In this document: piece after piece, positions 4,944-40,001 of the stretch
How the letters are laid out: each line of letters opens with the position of its first letter
Position numbering within the stretch: the first letter of the stretch is position 1
NCBI GenBank assembly: GCA_011601165.1
Contig: GCA_011601165.1_4547.1
Origin: Escherichia coli
GTDB lineage: Bacteria > Pseudomonadota > Gammaproteobacteria > Enterobacterales > Enterobacteriaceae
DNA: 40,001 nt
Reading direction: 5' to 3' (one strand)
Program-made: the position numbers and the translations under genes
Notes under the pieces: model-generated
What the model saw: only the letters and a program-made list of their open reading frames with translations
Databases searched by the model: none
Told to the model about the DNA's origin: nothing

Positions 4944-6507
4944 CTTGAGCCATGTCCTCACCAGCTCCCTGACCTACAGCAGCGCCCATGTTAGCACCAG
5001 CAGCAGACGCACCGTTGACCACAGCTCCTTGAGCGGATTGTTCAGCCATACGTTGCAACTTCTCGTCCTGGGTCAGCAGTAGACCAGCGGTGTCAATACC
5101 TAAGGCATTCAGCAGTCGCAGCTTCAGGGTCGGCAAGTTAATGTCAGGGTCCTGAGAGAGCTGCTGAAGACCAGTCATCATGTTGATTGCCTGAGTCAGC
5201 TTCTCTAAGTCTTGACCACGACCTAACGCTTCCAGACCGGTGGAGACCGTAGGCTCTACCACTTCTTTCGGAAGGTCAGGAATCATGCCAGCAGACTGAA
5301 GCTGGTTCATCAGCACACGGACGATAGGTAACTGAAGCTCTTGTGACTGTACTGAGTACACGCCACCTAAGGTCGCCTCCAGTTCGCCAGCAACATAACG
5401 AATCTCTTCAGCAGTGACTCGCTCGGCATTACGCTGAACAGCACTATTAAGAAGGAAGGCCCATCCTAAACGTTGCTCGATAGCATCAGCCACCGACTTG
5501 GCAATCGTAAAGTCCTGACCTTTCGTCAGTTGCAGGAAGTTGATGTCCTCAACGCGACCAGCCACGAACTCACCTGTAGCCGCCTTGTTCAGACGTCGAG
5601 GTTGCGTGATACCGTTCGGGTTAACGAGGCCCACCACCTTGGAGGCTACCTTAGCCATTTTGGTGATAGCTTCTGTAATCGTCTCCAGCGAGTTGAGGTC
5701 GCCCAGATACTCCTCGCAGTAAGAACGACCGTAGTCTTCACCATCCAGTCGAACCATTCGTACCGGGATGTATGGACATGCAGTCAGCGGGTAGGAACCA
5801 TCGGTCCCTGCTACCTCAATGCCTTCCACTTCCTCGTAACGCAGGTACTCGTCGTCCTGACGGTAGATGTGCGTATACACTTCAAGCTCGGTGTCAGGCT
5901 CATAGTCGTCTGCGTTGAGTTGAGACTTCACGTCTTCTGGTAGAGCACTAAACGCTACCTTGTCGAGAGTCACAATCTGCAAGATGTTACCGAACGCATC
6001 ACGTTGAACAACGTAAGACACTAAGCGGTACATTCTCATGGGACTGTAGGTCCCCTGTTCAGGCTCTGGAATGTAGAGCAGACAGTTACCGGAGACGATA
6101 AGCTGCTTCAGAGCTTCGAACAATGGCACACGGAAACTGTTAGTCTCCATGTAAGCCATCAACACACGCTCGACCATAGCCAGCCCTTCGTCAACACGAG
6201 CAGCCGCCTCTGAGTCCTGACTCAAGGTCTTGGCCTCATATTCGGAGACCGTCAGTCGCATCCATGGTGACTGAGGGAATAACGCCAACATCAGCTTTGC
6301 AGCCAAGTTGTTCAAGCAGCGAGCACCTACAGCTTGCCATGGAGTGGTGTACTCAGTAGACGAGTTGTCGGACTCCTTGGGAAATAGCGAGGGGATGGTC
6401 ACGGCAGCGCAGTTCTGTGCGCGTGTCTCATACGGCTGTCTTCCGTTCTTCAGTCTATCATAAACTGACTTCGCGCCTTCAGCAGCAAATCCTTCACGTT
6501 CAGCCAT
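4939..6507 (-). CDS. 8: portal (head-tail connector) protein (T7 gp8)
   Basis: 522 aa; N-terminus MAEREGFAAEGAKSVYDRLKNGRQPYETRAQNCA matches T7 gp8 as recalled; SD GGAGG. Confidence 0.95.
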   Translation of the reverse strand: MAEREGFAAEGAKSVYDRLKNGRQPYETRAQNCAAVTIPSLFPKESDNSSTEYTTPWQAVGARCLNNLAAKLMLALFPQSPWMRLTVSEYEAKTLSQDSEAAARVDEGLAMVERVLMAYMETNSFRVPLFEALKQLIVSGNCLLYIPEPEQGTYSPMRMYRLVSYVVQRDAFGNILQIVTLDKVAFSALPEDVKSQLNADDYEPDTELEVYTHIYRQDDEYLRYEEVEGIEVAGTDGSYPLTACPYIPVRMVRLDGEDYGRSYCEEYLGDLNSLETITEAITKMAKVASKVVGLVNPNGITQPRRLNKAATGEFVAGRVEDINFLQLTKGQDFTIAKSVADAIEQRLGWAFLLNSAVQRNAERVTAEEIRYVAGELEATLGGVYSVQSQELQLPIVRVLMNQLQSAGMIPDLPKEVVEPTVSTGLEALGRGQDLEKLTQAINMMTGLQQLSQDPDINLPTLKLRLLNALGIDTAGLLLTQDEKLQRMAEQSAQGAVVNGASAAGANMGAAVGQGAGEDMAQA

Positions 6508-6916
6508 CTACGTGCCTCCATGTTTTACCTTGGCGAACACGCAAAACTGTAGACTTGCTAACGCCTAGCTCACGAGCCAGTGTTGTACAACCTACGGTTG
6601 ACTTGCGGATTTCTCGAACAAGGTCTTCTGTTAAAACCGATAACCCTTGGTCTTCACCTCTAGCCATTTTGGTTTTATTGATGCGACCACGCTTTGAGGC
6701 GTCCTGCATGTTATCACGCTGAGTTCCTAACTCTAAGTGGTTTACGTTGAAACACGCTGGATTATCACACTTATGACGGACGAGCATTCCGTCTGGTATT
6801 GGCCCATGCGCATCGGCGTAAGCGAGTCGGTGCATATACACTAACTTACCGTCTATACGCTTCTGCCCGTATCCTGCTGAGGATTTGGCCCACTTCCACT
6901 CGATGCACCCGGTCAA
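6500..6916 (-). CDS. HNH homing-type endonuclease with C-terminal HTH
   Basis: GCIEWKW…SAGYG…HRLAYADAHGPIPDGMLVRHKCDNPACFNVNHLELGT…; apparent TTG start overlapping gp7.3 stop (TTGA). Confidence 0.75.
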   Translation of the reverse strand: MTGCIEWKWAKSSAGYGQKRIDGKLVYMHRLAYADAHGPIPDGMLVRHKCDNPACFNVNHLELGTQRDNMQDASKRGRINKTKMARGEDQGLSVLTEDLVREIRKSTVGCTTLARELGVSKSTVLRVRQGKTWRHVDG

Positions 6917-7161
6917 ATAGAGATGCCTCCACCAGAGGTACGAGAGACCTGAAGGCTACGCTTACCGGAACGCTTCACTTTCTTCTCGTCAGATGCGGTT
7001 GCTTCAGTATCCACATCCTCCACTTTGTCGTTCGGTACTTCCACTGGTACTGCTGGGGTCTGAGCCTCAACAACCTTAGGTGCATCGCTAGAGCCAAGAC
7101 CCACTGTCCCTAACGTGCTTTTCACCACTTTCTTGAAAGCCTTACTGATTGATTTACCCAC
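6913..7161 (-). CDS. 7.3: tail/host-range protein gp7.3-like
   Basis: 82 aa, lysine-rich N-terminus and C-terminus …SGGGISI resembling T7 gp7.3 as recalled. Confidence 0.65.
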   Translation of the reverse strand: MGKSISKAFKKVVKSTLGTVGLGSSDAPKVVEAQTPAVPVEVPNDKVEDVDTEATASDEKKVKRSGKRSLQVSRTSGGGISI

Positions 7162-9817: not shown

Positions 9818-10113
9818 CGTTCGAACTCCACCCGGAAGTTACCAAAGCTCGGCTGGTCAGAGTAATTGCTCAGGTCTTCTTTCAGCCCATCGACGATACC
9901 TTTCTTGAAGACAAGTTCGATTACAGCTTCCAGACCTTCAGTCACGCCAACCTCTACCATCTTGCGCTCAAAACCAGTGGTCTTCTCTCCGTTGAGGACC
10001 TTACGGCTCAGCTCGCAGAGATCCTTCTTGAAGTTCTCCACGTTTTCAGTTGACAACACAGCACCCAGCGAGAACGAAACTCGCATACGTTTGGTCATAG
10101 CCATTAGTGACAC
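9814..10113 (-). CDS. 5.5: gp5.5-like protein
   Basis: 99 aa ORF at the T7 5.5 position, same length. Confidence 0.55.
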   Translation of the reverse strand: MSLMAMTKRMRVSFSLGAVLSTENVENFKKDLCELSRKVLNGEKTTGFERKMVEVGVTEGLEAVIELVFKKGIVDGLKEDLSNYSDQPSFGNFRVEFER

Positions 10114-10385
10114 TCCTTCTTGACAAGTTTGCGCTCGCGGTTCGTCTTAATAACGTGCTCACGCTTAGGAATACATTGCAGATGCTCAACGTTACAGCAC
10201 CCACGGTTCAAGCACAAATGGTCTATCTCGTAGCCATCTGGTATCGGTCCGCACTTCTGCTCCCAGACCCATCGGTGGAACATGAACGCGAACTTATTCC
10301 CCTTTCGGTAGCTTCCCATAGAGTACCGGAAGTACCCGTCATGGTTCCTCTTATGAGATACGCAGACAATACATCCGGTAGGCAT
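10104..10385 (-). CDS. HNH endonuclease (gp5.3-like position)
   Basis: Cys/His motifs …DHLCLNRGCCNVEHL…; start reset to ATG 10385 (MPTGCIV) downstream of the DNA polymerase stop. Confidence 0.7.
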   Translation of the reverse strand: MPTGCIVCVSHKRNHDGYFRYSMGSYRKGNKFAFMFHRWVWEQKCGPIPDGYEIDHLCLNRGCCNVEHLQCIPKREHVIKTNRERKLVKKECH

Positions 10386-10416
10386 GGTGTGAAACCTCAA
10401 GGTCTGAGTGCGTTGG

Positions 10417-12588
10417 TCAATGACACTCTTTCCACGTTGGTCCAATCTTACCCTCCGTATCAAGTTCACACTTGAAGTTATAGAAGCGCCCGACCTCACG
10501 CATTGCCTCTTGCGCAATACGGACGACATCTTCGGCTATCTTCTGAGTACGACACGCAATCTGTAATTCGTCGTGAATCCAAGCCATTAACGCAAAGTCA
10601 CCATCCCATCCGTTACCGTAGCCAGCTTCCTCAAGTTTCTTCTCCGTCAGCACCATCCAGTGCTTACATACTACCGCACCATCACCCTGAAGTAAGGCGT
10701 TCAGTGCTGAGTGTGGAGACCGGATGTGAATGCGGCGACCATCCAGACCTTTCAGCCAGCGACGTTTCCACTTCACGATATTCTCACCATCTACCCACTT
10801 CGATTCTGAGATGAGCGTGTTCTGCACAGCTTCCCTGAGGTCCTTGATAGCTGGTGTACCCTCAATGAATTTCTTCATCAGGGCCGCACCTTCCTTCTTA
10901 CCACCGCCAACTATCAGTCCAATCTTAGCGGCCCCTGCACCATACAGGAACGCATAGATGAACGTCTTAGCGTTGTTACGGAAAGCATCATGGTCGTGGT
11001 TCGACTTATCGCGTGGGACGTTAGGTGCTAACCCAGCGTTGACTGCGTTGGCCCAGTGGATATCACCTTCGACCACAGTCTTCGCATAGTCGCCACCATC
11101 AAACGGAGCAGCTCGGTTTCCCAGACAACGAAGCTCAAGACCTGAAGCATCCACGCCTACTTGAATCCAAGGGTCTGGCTTACCGTCCTTCTTGTTCCAC
11201 GCTGCACCGAAAGCACCACGGCAAGTCTCACCATACGGAGCACCGTTAGCCGGGACCTGAGCCATGTTTGGTGAACTATGGGTCGCACGTCCGGTTACTG
11301 CACCACATGGGTTGATTGAACCGTGCATACGTCCGTCTGGACCTACAAGTTTCAACCATGCGTTCTTACCTTCAGCAGCCTGACCTATGCGCTTCTGGAC
11401 CACCAGATACTCACGGACCAGCTCTACGCAAGCCTGAGCCTCTGCGTCTGGTAACTTAACGTGTTCTAACGTCTCGTCATCGACTACAGGTTTCCCGGTG
11501 TCAGTGAAGTCCACAGGCTCCCAGCCACGCTCCATCAGGACTTTCGCTAAGTGGTCTCCGCTTCCCGGATTAAACTCAACGTAAGTGATTGGCGTGAATG
11601 GCGCTCCCTCCATCGTGTCTCGCGTATCGCGTTCACGAGGTTCAAGACCTAAGCGTTGAGCTTTGTTCTTAGGCTTCTTAAAGATGCCACCGACCTTAGG
11701 ATACACGACTCTCGGATACTTCGGAAGGTCCTTACCTGTTCGTGGATGCCTGAAGAACTCCTTGCCTCCCTTTGGTGCATACCAGCTACCGAAAGTCGAG
11801 CGCAGCTTGTCAAGCAACTCCGCACGTTTGACAGTGAGTTCACGATATAAGCCTTCGACCATCTCGGTGTTCATCGGATAGCCGTTACGCTCCATCTTCG
11901 CACAGGTCCACGCAGCATCATGTTCCAGACGCAACGCATAAATCTGTTCGAAAGCGAACTGTTCAGACTGGAAGTAATACTTGTCAGTCAGGAACTTCTT
12001 GAACAACGCCAGTGTAACCACAACGTCTTGAACGTTATAGTCCAGCATCTCCTGAGACGGGAACAACCATTCGTCACCAGCCTTATATTCGATACCTTCG
12101 GCCTTGCACTTGGCAATGTAATCGTGTTTGTACTCACCCTTCATCTCACCTAGACGATAGCCCCAAGCCTCAAGAGACTGGCGTCCCATCAGCTTAGGAG
12201 GCAGACGACCAGCTTTCACTGCGCCCATGTCTGAGAACTTAATGTTGGGATACATCAAGCGGCCCAGAACCAAGGTATCAATCATCTTGTGTTTCGGGAA
12301 GTTAAATCGTTTCCCAAAGTACAGACGCTTCAGTTTGTCTATAGCTGGTACGTCATAGTTGATACCGTTATGGAAGACCAACATACCCGTAGGTGTTGCC
12401 GCGATCTCTTCCACCTTCTGTACATACTCTTTGAAGCCACCGACGATACCGACCATCGGCGCTACCCCATACTTAAGGGTCTCATTCGACTCGGCATTAA
12501 TCAGGACCCCACAATGGAACTGGGACACGGTGTCAAGGAGACCGTTGGTCTCGATGTCCGAACCCCAAATATCCTTAAGGTCAAACAT
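10417..12588 (-). CDS. 5: DNA polymerase (T7 gp5)
   Basis: 723 aa; exonuclease and polymerase motifs; resembles T7 gp5 as recalled (…DIETNGLL…FHNG..YDVPA…KLMERQSLEAWGYRLGEMKGEYK…). Confidence 0.95.
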   Translation of the reverse strand: MFDLKDIWGSDIETNGLLDTVSQFHCGVLINAESNETLKYGVAPMVGIVGGFKEYVQKVEEIAATPTGMLVFHNGINYDVPAIDKLKRLYFGKRFNFPKHKMIDTLVLGRLMYPNIKFSDMGAVKAGRLPPKLMGRQSLEAWGYRLGEMKGEYKHDYIAKCKAEGIEYKAGDEWLFPSQEMLDYNVQDVVVTLALFKKFLTDKYYFQSEQFAFEQIYALRLEHDAAWTCAKMERNGYPMNTEMVEGLYRELTVKRAELLDKLRSTFGSWYAPKGGKEFFRHPRTGKDLPKYPRVVYPKVGGIFKKPKNKAQRLGLEPRERDTRDTMEGAPFTPITYVEFNPGSGDHLAKVLMERGWEPVDFTDTGKPVVDDETLEHVKLPDAEAQACVELVREYLVVQKRIGQAAEGKNAWLKLVGPDGRMHGSINPCGAVTGRATHSSPNMAQVPANGAPYGETCRGAFGAAWNKKDGKPDPWIQVGVDASGLELRCLGNRAAPFDGGDYAKTVVEGDIHWANAVNAGLAPNVPRDKSNHDHDAFRNNAKTFIYAFLYGAGAAKIGLIVGGGKKEGAALMKKFIEGTPAIKDLREAVQNTLISESKWVDGENIVKWKRRWLKGLDGRRIHIRSPHSALNALLQGDGAVVCKHWMVLTEKKLEEAGYGNGWDGDFALMAWIHDELQIACRTQKIAEDVVRIAQEAMREVGRFYNFKCELDTEGKIGPTWKECH

Positions 12589-12652: not shown

Positions 12653-12817
12653 CTAGAAGTCTGTACGCAAGAAGTGATACATGAACTTCCGGTTAGCTTT
12701 CTTCCATGCCTCAGAGTTGAACCGCTGGTCTCCCAGAATGTTCGACAGGCAGGTAGCTTCATCGCTCCACCATTTGTACATGAACCGATGGTATCGAGCT
12801 TTAAGTTTCTTAAACAC
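12653..12817 (-). CDS. small basic protein, 54 aa (gene 4.x region)
   Basis: GTG start 7 nt after GGAGG; MFKKLKARYHRFMYKWWSDEATCLS…; not in ORF track (under 60 aa). Confidence 0.4.
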   Translation of the reverse strand: MFKKLKARYHRFMYKWWSDEATCLSNILGDQRFNSEAWKKANRKFMYHFLRTDF

Positions 12818-23018: not shown

Positions 23019-23028
23019 TATCACTCTC

Positions 23029-25787: not shown

Positions 25788-27551
25788 CTAGTGGAACGTA
25801 ACGTATGACCCTAGCCCAAGCTCGTCGTCCATATCGTGAGTTACCCGGACCCCATTGTCCCAGAACTCAGTGTGGATGGACTCGAAGCCTTTCCGTGGGT
25901 TCTCCATCTGTTCCTCCAACCACTCCTCAGTGACTTCACGTTCACCTTTGTTGGCATCCTTAGCCATAGACTCAACGAAGAACTGCACACCGATAGCCAG
26001 TGCATCAAGTCGGTCATCGTGTGCCAAGGCTCCACGTTCACGAGAGATACGTGTCATCTGGTAGAAGAGAGAGTAGATAGGGTTACGAACACCATCCTTA
26101 TCAGAGGCTGACTGGTAGTCTTGGACGATAGCAGCAGCGTTAACGATAAGTCGGTGAGACCCCATGATAGGCTCCAGAACGTCACAGATGCGGAGTTCTT
26201 TCTGACCCTTACTCTTCACTTCAGTTACAGCAGCAGGATGGATACGGGCCGCTACAGGCTTGAATAGCTCAAGGTACATACCATCCCCGAAGTTGCCCTC
26301 AATGACGTACTCGTTGACCTTCCACTTACGACCAATCTTAGCCAGTGCTTCAAGCGTAGAGTCTTCATAGCCACCACGCATGCCACCAACTTCCATAGCG
26401 AAGATGTAGCCGTTGAGCTGGTACAGTACCGCATAACCAGTTTCATCCTTACCGCGACCACTAGGGTCAATGACCAGAATCTTCTGGGTGTACGAACTGA
26501 AGGCAGAACCTACAGTCTGATACGTGTGGTATGAGTCACCCATGAGTCCAACGTTAGGAACGTCCTCACGCTTGTTCTGAGGGTTAGGCAGCCATTGGTA
26601 GACCATTGGGCTGGATGCTGGGTCCAAGTCTGCTACGATAAGGTCACGGAGCTTCAGAGGGTACTTCTCAGCATCACTTAGGTTCGGGTTAAGCATAAAC
26701 TGTAGAGCGAAACCAGCTTTACCGTATGACAGCTCGCGTTCCTTCAGGTCTGTATCATCGAAGCGTACTTCATCAGTCGGACGCCAGTAGAAGGACTCAG
26801 GGTCCTCTTCAAGCTCTGCCTGAAGCATCGGTGCTAGACGGTCGCCGTAAGACTGCCAGTCCTTCCTGTCGCGTGGATAACGAGCAGGCCAGATAGTAGT
26901 GGTGTACCCACGACCTTCCAACTCACGATACAGGGTCATCTCGTTCTGAGGAGTACCCAGATAGATGATTGTACCTCCCGGCTTCAGGATAGCGTCGAAC
27001 TCTTTCACAAGCTCTGACAGACGGTCTCGTGCGGCCTGAGTCGCTGAGTTGTTCGGAACCTCCACGTCATCGGCAATCAGGATGTCAGCACGACTACCAG
27101 TCAACTGACCAGTGATACCAACGGACTTAACCGAAGGTGAGTGGTCTGGCTTGGCTGGTCCAACGTCGAAGCTGATAACCGCATCTCGCTGCCCCTGCTT
27201 AGGTTTTAGTTCCTGAAGCTGAGGCATGAGGTCGATGATTCGCTTGATGAAGATGGAGTTAGCATCGGCTCGTTCCTTTGAGGCCGACACAATCATGAAC
27301 TTCAAGTCTGGGTTGTTCCATAGCTTCCAGACAACGAAGGCACACGTAATGAAGGACTTCCCTATACCACGGAACGCCTGTAGGATGAAGCGCCTGTTGT
27401 CCCCAGCCGATAGTTTCTTCGCCATGTCAATCTGACAGCGAGTCGGGACTGGGAGTGACAGAGCTTTCCACAGTACGAACAGGAAGAACACGAAGTCTGC
27501 CTTCATACGTGCAGTCATTAGCGCCTGACGCGCCACTAAGTCTTTACTCAA
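25788..27551 (-). CDS. 19: terminase large subunit (T7 gp19)
   Basis: 587 aa; …[24 protein letters not shown]…[10 protein letters not shown]… as T7 gp19 as recalled; apparent TTG start with SD GAGGTG. Confidence 0.95.
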
Positions 27552-27562
27552 TGCGTCACCTC

Positions 27563-28354
27563 TTAAGAGTTAAAGATGCGGTCAACGCGAACAGTCAGGG
27601 AGGTCAGAGTAAGGTCCTCAGACCCTGTAACTGCAATGCCAAGCATGATGCCAGTAGTAACGAACGAGTCGTCTGTATTAGCTATGTAGCTATGGATGGC
27701 TGCCTCACGAATGGTGAATAACTGCTGGTCATCTGTGTCCGTCACGGAAGACATGGTAGTGTTATCGGGTCTACGCAGCTGCACTCGCCACTTATGGGCT
27801 GAGGCTGTAGGGAACTCACCAGCGAACCGAACGACGAAGTTTACACCACTGAGTCCCTCTTTAGCTGGGAACATCATCTTTCCTTCGGAGATAGTAACGA
27901 CGCCGCTGTCCACTCTCTTCACTAAAGGTAGAGTCATTAGGTTAGTGAACTGACCAGCCGCACACACTTGGGTTCCTGACCAGTCGAAGGTATCCAGAGA
28001 ATACTCAGCGTGGGATACAGGACGTGACTCCCGATAAGTATACTCTACCTTAACAAGTCCGACGCCGCTGTTATTCAGCTTGGTGACTTTAAGAATCAGG
28101 AAGTCGTCTTCTGTGGTACCAACCGCTTCCAGACGTACACTGCCTGATTGTAGAGGCCAGCCGCCACCATCGGAGAAATTACCAGTAGCAGACGTACCGT
28201 CGCTTAGTGTAATCCTTGTAGACTCGGCGTTAGCTGGGACCTTCACGTATATTGTACCAGATAACAAGTGACCGGATGCGTTCTTCAGTCCAGATGGGGT
28301 ACCAGTAGCAAAATGCCAAACTACGTCAGTTCTCAAAGTAATAATATTACCCAT
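27563..28354 (-). CDS. hypothetical protein, 263 aa; no T7 counterpart at this position
   Basis: ORF starts 8 nt inside Rz 3' end; Gly/Ser/Thr/Val-rich, predicted beta-rich; no motif recognised. Confidence 0.6.
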
Positions 28355-39286: not shown

Positions 39287-40001
39287 TTAGACGGAACGAG
39301 CTTTCTTAGCGTATGACGCCTCCCAGCCACAGCCAACGATGGACACTGGGGTAGGATAATCTGACTCTAAGGTTAGACTCGTGGTTAATGCGTTACCATT
39401 CATAGCGAAGCGATACTGACCATCCCCAATGTTGGTAGTCCCGATGGTTTGCTGACCAAGGGTGTACCCATTAAAGGTGTTCACGAACTCCCGCTCACCG
39501 TTTCTGACAATGAGCCTAAGAGCGCCAGTGTCCTTGTAGTTGACCCACGCCCGACGAAGCTGTAGGCGTCCAGTGTCTTCAGACTGAGTGCCGCTATCGT
39601 CTTCAATCTTAATCAGGAACCGTGAGAACTTGTAGGACATCTGATAAGACCGTCCGATGAACACTGTACGTCCTGACCAATCGCCATTGAGTATAGCCAC
39701 AGTTGAGATGTTGGTCAGTTCACCAAGGTCCACATAGGCACCCTGACTGTCAATCAGATAGTACCGACCGGGAGACGGAGCGTTTCCACCATAAGCAGAA
39801 CCAATATCGACCGTAGTCTTATAGGTGTCAGCGTTGTATGAGCCAATTGGTATTACCATAGACACCTTGGAGTCAACGTGGAGTCTATACGGCTCTAATG
39901 GAAAGTCAGTTGCCTCCTTGATGAACTTAAGGTGCTCAAGGTCCACGCCGCCTTGGTGCTGACGAACAATGAACATGGTAGAGCCAATCGACGCAGACGC
40001 C
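39287..40001 (-). CDS. 12: tail tubular protein B (gp12), C-terminal part; 5' end beyond window end
   Basis: frame open from window end to TAA at 39287-39289; lengths of the two gp12 pieces sum to about 786 codons against about 794 in T7. Confidence 0.85.
   Translation of the reverse strand, partial: ASASIGSTMFIVRQHQGGVDLEHLKFIKEATDFPLEPYRLHVDSKVSMVIPIGSYNADTYKTTVDIGSAYGGNAPSPGRYYLIDSQGAYVDLGELTNISTVAILNGDWSGRTVFIGRSYQMSYKFSRFLIKIEDDSGTQSEDTGRLQLRRAWVNYKDTGALRLIVRNGEREFVNTFNGYTLGQQTIGTTNIGDGQYRFAMNGNALTTSLTLESDYPTPVSIVGCGWEASYAKKARSV

Follow-up and report, generated by a model that had tools for sequence, protein, structure and literature searches.

Two genes of a K1F-like phage genome, the large terminase gene (gene 19) and an HNH endonuclease gene situated between genes 7.3 and 8, open with TTG, and both codons are very probably genuine translation starts. 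Comparison with the sequences of related phages establishes the identity of the start codons, and we infer that the weak codons throttle synthesis of the two proteins and that each start is coupled to termination on the gene upstream.

The phage genome and its gene layout

The window, a stretch of 40,001 nucleotides (40 kb) from an Escherichia coli assembly (GCA_011601165.1), represents the almost complete genome of a K1F-like phage in the genus Kayfunavirus (Autographiviridae, T7 family). Its terminase region is 94%–97% identical to those of Escherichia phages Bas105, CLB_P1, EcoDS1, K1F, and many others. The order of its open reading frames (ORFs) agrees with that of K1F, EcoDS1, CLB_P1, and T7, with gene 19 following genes 17.5, 18, and 18.5 at the right-hand end of the T7-like map. 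The whole gene set lies on the minus strand; the plus strand reads CAA at 27549–27551, and the coding direction reads TTG.

Gene 19 is preceded by an accessory gene, 18.8, which is also found in CLB_P1 and annotated there as a 'putative protease'. The product of gene 18.8 matches phrog_17779, a family of unknown function, and a Pfam search with it returned no hit. Gene 7.3, upstream of the HNH gene, itself uses a non-ATG start; its GTG is served by a Shine–Dalgarno (SD) sequence of −8.5 kcal/mol and is annotated in CLB_P1 as well. The features discussed here are collected in Table 1.

Table 1. Start sites and associated features in the window
Feature	Position	Strand	Evidence
Gene 19 CDS, large terminase, 587 aa	25788..27551	−	Pfam and PDB matches
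Gene 19 TTG, very probable initiation codon	27549..27551	−	First start candidate; invariance in Kayfunavirus; annotation in relatives
Gene 19 SD, GAGGTGA	27556..27562	−	Seven contiguous pairs with the 16S rRNA 3′ end
Gene 18.8, accessory, 263 aa, ATG start	27563..28354	−	ORF list
Gene 19 rejected starts: ATG codon 12 (27516–27518) and ATG codon 16 (27504–27506)	27504..27518	−	
HNH endonuclease CDS, 138 aa, T7 gp7.7 ortholog	6500..6916	−	Pfam HNH_3; identity to T7 gp7.7
HNH gene TTG, very probable initiation codon	6914..6916	−	Only start candidate after the in-frame stop
HNH gene SD, GGTGGAGG	6926..6933	−	GGAGG with a 9-nt spacer
Gene 7.3, 82 aa, GTG start (7159–7161)	6913..7161	−	Pfam VirionAssem_T7
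Gene-5.3-position HNH CDS, 113 aa	10104–10445	−	Probable TTG start at 10443..10445

The start site of gene 19

The minus strand leading into gene 19 reads TAA CTC TTA AGA GGT GAC GCA TTG AGT AAA GAC. An in-frame TAA occupies 27572–27570, the TTG occupies 27551–27549, and no ATG, GTG, or TTG falls between the two; reading of this strand thus bears out the preliminary description, in which the TTG was taken as the first in-frame start past the TAA. The same description placed an SD element, GAGGTG, 7 nt upstream of the TTG, which is correct when GAGG is taken as the core; measured after GAGGTG or GAGGTGA, the distance is 5 nt or 4 nt, respectively. The stop codon of gene 18.8 (TAA, 27565–27563) directly adjoins this SD element and lies 11 nt ahead of the TTG.

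The gene product is a T7-type large terminase. It matches the Pfam family Terminase-T7_RNaseH-like (PF22530; E = 6e-38) and PF03237 (E = 3e-5), along with the PDB chains 8dgc_E (E = 7e-247) and 4bij_A (E = 1e-216), and both the RNase H-like nuclease domain and the N-terminal ATPase region are present. When initiated at the TTG, gp19 aligns from residue 1 with 8dgc_E, a T7-like terminase of 586 aa, and the two proteins share Ser2, Ala7, Ala10, and Leu11, all of which lie upstream of the first methionine.

In all 12 distinct Kayfunavirus sequences compared, the TTG and its SD sequence are invariant and held at a fixed spacing. A scan of all IMG/VR contigs, with a pattern whose start codon could begin with A, G, or T, recovered only TTG among its terminase hits (15/15, in 12 distinct contexts). 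The DNA upstream of the SD sequence is unrelated between Kayfunavirus phages because different accessory genes, or none, occupy the interval between genes 18.5 and 19.

EcoDS1 (NC_011042), CLB_P1 (KC109329), and Bas105 (PQ850601), which diverge from the window by about 3%–4% of nucleotides in gene 19, have the identical start, TTG AGT AAA GAC TTA, and their records annotate this TTG as the beginning of a 587-aa product. The SD sequence of the relatives is (A)AGGAGGTGA, at a distance from the TTG equal to that in the window, and the window version is shorter by one base than that of most relatives (GAGGTGA versus GGAGGTGA). CLB_P1 shares both gene 18.8 and the shortened SD sequence, TAAGAGGTGA; EcoDS1 and Bas105 carry, in place of gene 18.8, a small upstream ORF whose TGA overlaps the gene 19 TTG (TTGA).

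The orthologous gene 19 of T7 (NC_001604) occupies the same map position and likewise pairs a strong SD sequence with a non-ATG start, being annotated from a GTG (37370) at the equivalent position with TAAGGAGG ahead of it. The two N termini are homologous up to the start. The equality of N-terminal length with T7 gp19 that was initially described holds only to within one residue: the window protein has 587 aa and T7 gp19 has 586 aa, with 17 and 16 residues, respectively, ahead of the conserved K-x-D-F(-V) motif. The two loci differ further in the start codon itself, GTG in T7 versus TTG in the window, and in the insertion of gene 18.8 upstream in the window.

Codons 2–11 of gene 19 keep the reading frame among relatives and show silent changes (TTA/CTA, GCG/GCA, CTA/CTT, and CGT/AGA). 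Roughly equal numbers of nonsynonymous and synonymous changes occur there, which makes this a weak test on its own; purifying selection is therefore weak in this segment, and the changes alone do not prove translation.

The HNH gene between genes 7.3 and 8

The HNH gene was initially described as apparently starting at a TTG that overlaps the preceding stop, and this is the arrangement found: its TTG and the TGA of gene 7.3 (6915–6913) are merged in a TTGA at 6916–6913. A GGAGG lies at 6930–6926, giving a spacer of 9 nt, and there is no start candidate between the in-frame stop and the TTG, which leaves the TTG as the only one. At its 3′ end, the gene shares 8 nt with the beginning of gene 8 (ATG, 6505–6507).

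The predicted protein contains a Pfam HNH_3 domain (PF13392) at residues 26–71 (E = 1e-15, above the gathering score) and matches PHROG HNH families with E values down to 3e-37, these profiles aligning from residue 2. It is 47% identical over its full length to T7 gp7.7 (E = 7e-42). The alignment begins at Cys4 in both proteins, each of which has exactly three residues ahead of this conserved cysteine; T7 gp7.7 begins V-E-D-C from its GTG, and N termini of the form M-x-x-C-[ILW]-x-W (the M-x-x-C-I-E-W type) are common across the wider HNH family. T7 gene 7.7 also lies between genes 7.3 and 8 and has a non-ATG start; its GTG begins 13 nt past the end of gene 7.3, whereas the TTG in the window overlaps the stop. 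Gene 7.7 of Citrobacter phage CR44b (NC_023576), annotated as an HNH endonuclease with a TTG start, is 99.5% identical and retains the TTGA overlap, and thus shows essentially no difference from the window gene: one allele in two phages.

A comparable arrangement is known from T4, in which free-standing homing endonuclease genes (mobA, mobE, segC, and segF) often overlap the upstream ORF at their start; mobA has a predicted GUG start within a 23-bp overlap, and the arrangement has been interpreted as limiting translation of the endonuclease (PMC2988022). The start-stop overlap is common to these genes and the HNH gene of the window, although they belong to other endonuclease families and another phage.

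When the segment from gene 7.3 through the HNH gene to gene 8 is used as a query, 188 phage records match, of which only 6 reach a coverage of 80% or more. Most of the other records match only the two flanks (about 52%–56% coverage, in two pieces), and some hold a different HNH allele between genes 7.3 and 8. The gene is missing from most Kayfunaviruses and is present patchily, at a fixed site in otherwise colinear genomes, a distribution as expected of a putative free-standing (mobile) homing endonuclease gene.

Eight intact alleles, of 96%–99.5% identity, could be compared. At the same codon, five have TTG (the window, CR44b, RDN8.1, L109, and L110) and three have ATG (EFA-1, KKP_3263, and vB_EcoP-R1); the different allele found at the same site in Pipis and GA2A also has ATG here. 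In the overlapping gene 7.3, the codons with A and T are ATA and ATT, both of which encode isoleucine, and the difference is therefore silent there. The weak codon is hence not obligatory, and to regard it as a throttle may be to over-read neutral drift in a selfish gene. A rather unlikely but still sizeable alternative is that the HNH TTG, while functional, is non-adaptive, having arisen by neutral or mildly degenerative change from ATG and been tolerated since it is silent in gene 7.3. The occurrence of both codons among closely similar alleles, the synonymy in gene 7.3, and the absence of the gene from most Kayfunaviruses, which fits a mobile element, all favour this explanation. Against it, the ORF is intact in 8 of 8 alleles, the related HNH genes of T7 (2.8 and 7.7) both start with GTG, and the second HNH gene of the window also appears to be TTG-started. 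The repeated occurrence of non-ATG starts in HNH genes gives a hint that weak starts may be preferred.

A probable third TTG start

This second HNH gene, at the gene 5.3 position, probably begins at the TTG at 10445, which falls within the DNA polymerase gene, 28 nt short of its 3′ end (stop at 10417–10419). An SD element, GGAGGG, lies at 10451–10456 and scores −10.0 kcal/mol. In the stretch from the polymerase stop to the next ATG, nearly all changes among relatives are synonymous in the reading frame of the HNH gene; the orthologous proteins open with MGGVATLRFH, encoded from an ATG that lies upstream of the methionine of 'MPTGC'; and phrog_1872 aligns with the product from residue 2. These three observations were also set against the possibility that the start is a by-product of polymerase coding, in which D-T-E-G-K would generate the GGAGGG, and that candidate explanation was rejected. 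Relatives carry three different annotated starts for this gene, and the TTG version, which the MopsHU1 record annotates at the site equivalent to 10445, is the best supported.

Shine–Dalgarno strength relative to background

The strength of SD sequences was scored as pairing with the full 16S rRNA 3′ tail (probe GAUCACCUCCUUA). The gene 19 site scores −11.5 kcal/mol and the HNH site −9.9 kcal/mol; both TTGs thus have SD complementarity at a spacing of 4–10 nt that stands above background. A shorter anti-SD probe, ACCUCCUUA, gave only −7.1 kcal/mol for gene 19, an underscoring that arises because GAGGTGA pairs deeper into the 16S tail. Confidently assigned ATG starts in the window (n = 37) have a median of −9.2 kcal/mol, and the gene 19 site outranks 81% of this set. 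Among the 499 TTG codons on the minus strand, only 0.8% have an SD sequence as strong as that of gene 19, and 2.6% have one as strong as that of the HNH gene. Furthermore, of 23 TTGs with an SD sequence of −7 kcal/mol or better by the short probe, only those of gene 19 and the HNH gene open a long ORF that has no upstream in-frame start.

Improbable alternatives: initiation at downstream codons and sequencing error

Initiation at the TTG might be accompanied by internal initiation, so that the TTG would yield the complete protein and a second start within the ORF, at an ATG or GTG, would yield an N-terminally shorter isoform as well. Gene 19 has in-frame ATGs 11 and 15 codons downstream of the TTG, both kept in most relatives, and T7-like phages use internal starts elsewhere, as in gene 4A/4B. 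The internal ATGs of gene 19 nevertheless stand without an SD sequence, conservation of Met12 is not universal, its counterpart in L204 being valine, and a shorter isoform is not known to have been reported. The alternative ATG is therefore not a conserved feature of gene 19, and dual initiation appears improbable.

Slightly less probable again is that a downstream ATG is the true start in each gene (codon 12 or 16 of the terminase gene; codon 28 of the HNH gene) and that the TTGs belong to untranslated leaders. ATG is by far the commonest start, found at about 90% of the genes annotated in T7 and CLB_P1, and the K1F RefSeq record (NC_007456) places the terminase start at the ATG of codon 12, for a product of 575 aa. 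The energies at the downstream candidates in gene 19 (GTG codon 6 and ATG codons 12 and 16) are only −2 to −4 kcal/mol, with −4.0 kcal/mol at ATG codon 12 and −2.0 kcal/mol at ATG codon 16. The residues ahead of Met12 are homologous to those of T7-like terminases, and T7 gene 19 has no in-frame ATG in this N-terminal region, with no methionine at the positions of codons 12 and 16; the valine of L204 at position 12 points the same way. In the HNH gene, the first ATG (Met28) falls within the HNH_3 domain, and a start there would remove the C-I-E-W...G-Y-G segment shared with T7 gp7.7; moreover, the ATG of relatives sits precisely at the TTG codon. The TTG thus remains the preferred start in both genes. 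In K1F, the same TTG and SD sequence are present, yet the terminase is annotated from codon 12; this start has probably been called too late, cutting the protein short by 12 codons.

A sequencing or assembly error that turned ATG into TTG in this genome has nothing in its favour beyond the rarity of TTG starts, and its probability is negligible: it is ruled out by the comparative data, since TTG stands at this position of gene 19 in over 15 genomes sequenced independently of one another and in the HNH gene of four others.

Initiation from UUG and its probable effect on expression

Initiation at GUG and UUG in E. coli proceeds at approximately 10%–100% of the level at AUG, and about 3% of genes in this species begin with UUG (bioRxiv 10.1101/063800). 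In both genes described here, the UUG would be read as fMet by the initiator tRNA, with the ribosome placed by a good SD sequence. For gene 19, the 30S subunit is predicted to bind the GAGGTGA immediately ahead of the TTG, and ribosomes ending gene 18.8, 11 nt upstream, may re-initiate at the gene 19 start. For the HNH gene, the overlap of its TTG with the gene 7.3 stop, together with the GGAGG, would permit coupling of termination to re-initiation. The geometry that such coupling calls for is present at both sites, in the TTGA of the HNH gene and in the short distance between the gene 18.8 stop and the gene 19 TTG. UUG is a weaker initiator than AUG, and the likely effect is therefore low synthesis of both proteins. 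The weak codon probably serves to limit output: the packaging ATPase-nuclease is needed in small amounts, and a free-standing HNH nuclease is potentially harmful.

Non-AUG starts across T7-like phages

Annotated non-ATG starts number 6 of 57 genes in T7, all of them GTG (genes 2.8, 6.3, 7.7, 17.5, 19, and 19.2), and 5 of 58 in CLB_P1. A survey of gene 19 across the Autographiviridae covered 66 distinct N termini, for which start calls were heuristic (some of them uncertain) and lineages were not independent; the start with the best SD sequence was ATG in 44, TTG in 13, and GTG in 8, with no candidate in 1. Within the subset having an SD sequence of −7 kcal/mol or better, 14 starts were ATG, 10 TTG, and 4 GTG, such that 14 of 28 strong-SD starts are non-ATG versus about 9%–10% of annotated genes in T7 and CLB_P1. 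Several environmental clades of Autographiviridae have TTG or GTG at gene 19, and within the strong-SD subset L036 and L037 form a pair with GTG and ATG at one and the same gene 19 codon.

We tentatively propose that T7-like phages use non-AUG starts as a selected, lineage-spanning translational throttle on their large terminase genes and free-standing HNH genes, a reading that is plausible but somewhat short of probable. No paper stating such a pattern for T7-like terminase or HNH genes was found in the literature, and searches on Kayfunavirus and on T7 gene 19 likewise brought up nothing specific on N termini or start codons, and no N-terminal proteomics or ribosome profiling.

Significance

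The TTG starts themselves are already known, being annotated in EcoDS1, CLB_P1, and Bas105 for gene 19 and in CR44b and RDN8.1 for the HNH gene. T7 is already non-ATG, with GTG, at both equivalent genes, 19 and 7.7, and the case of the window is in this respect ordinary. The main value of the result lies in annotation quality, and the TTG calls are worth keeping for this genome. Anyone recoding, refactoring, or over-expressing these genes should bear in mind that the native starts are weak, whether by design or by drift. For the T7-like phages more broadly, the mechanism is not new, and a possible preference of terminase and HNH genes for non-AUG starts offers a small, testable hint as to how their expression may be tuned.

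Start codons of gene 19 and of the second HNH gene

The large terminase (gene 19) of phage K1F is annotated in RefSeq (L003, NC_007456, 1511-1547) as starting at the ATG of codon 12, giving a protein of 575 aa; a conserved Shine-Dalgarno (SD) sequence and TTG are nevertheless present 33 nt upstream of this ATG, and the RefSeq start site is probably mis-annotated. Among the terminases of a more distantly related Autographiviridae clade, which share the N terminus x-W-T-x-E-Q, the codon at the homologous start position varies: it is GTG in two comparison sequences (L036 and L060), ATG in two (L037 and L091), and TTG in four (L047, L048, L064, and L090). In a further member, L039, the translation opens I-N-W-T and ATG, GTG, and TTG are all absent; this terminase may therefore use a rarer codon, e.g., ATT or ATA.

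A further TTG start in the window is probable for the second HNH gene, which occupies the gene 5.3 position. This codon lies inside the DNA polymerase gene, 28 nt before its end, and is preceded by the SD GGAGGG (−10.0 kcal/mol). In the stretch that separates the polymerase stop from the next ATG, nearly all changes among relatives are synonymous; orthologs start at an ATG and have the N terminus MGGVATLRFH, and the alignment of phrog_1872 to the HNH protein begins at residue 2. GenBank relatives carry three different start annotations for this gene, which yield proteins of 71, 93, and 113 aa. Four further non-ATG starts, all GTG and all on the minus strand, are likely in the window (see table).

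Features of the window and of related contigs (SD energies in kcal/mol)
Feature	Position	Strand	Remarks
Second HNH gene (gene 5.3 position), probable TTG start	10104-10529; TTG 10443-10445	−	SD and comparison with relatives
Gene 7.3, likely GTG start	7159-7161	−	SD −8.5; GTG in CLB_P1 too
Gene 4.3-like 54-aa ORF, likely GTG start	12815-12817	−	SD −9.5; GTG in CLB_P1
47-aa early ORF, likely GTG start	23022-23024	−	SD −10.6
Gene 10.1-like ORF, likely GTG start	2708-2710	−	Weak SD
Gene 12 (tail tubular protein B), split	1-1650 and 39287-40001	−	ORF parts at both window ends
263-aa accessory gene, 18.5–19 slot	27563-28354	−	Also in CLB_P1
HNH_3 endonuclease gene directly 5′ of gene 19	L012 1059-1505; L013 1050-1496		HNH_3, E 7e-21

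Genome layout

The annotation of the DNA polymerase gene in the relative CLB_P1 (L093 13022-15788) joins two pieces and has the HNH homing endonuclease gene 5.3 inside it, whereas the polymerase ORF of the window (10417-12588, 723 aa) is unbroken and the HNH gene follows it. The window boundaries fall within gene 12: its 5′ part extends past coordinate 1, and its 3′ part continues from 40001. Compared with the standard T7-like map, the window is thus circularly permuted. Comparison of the two window ends found no 40-nt overlap; the interval from about 24740 to about 25330 must contain the genome ends or terminal-repeat region.

The interval between genes 18.5 and 19

Comparison of the region upstream of gene 19 in the window and four related sequences (L001, L004, L012, and L013) identifies the interval between genes 18.5 and 19 as an accessory-gene hot spot. 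The 263-aa gene occupying it in the window is labelled 'putative protease' in CLB_P1, and a Pfam search of the window's product returned no hit. EcoDS1 and Bas105 carry small ORFs here, with a TGA overlapping the gp19 TTG, and the slot is empty in K1F. In two IMG/VR Kayfunavirus contigs (L012 and L013), an HNH_3 gene adjoins gene 19, an arrangement similar to the homing-endonuclease insertion described in Hafnia phage Ca (PMC8861465). Gene 19 of both contigs begins with ATG and carries a divergent version (MSKKTPAERQAEM...) in place of the first ~17 codons, which suggests that the insert came with its own gene 19 5′ end.
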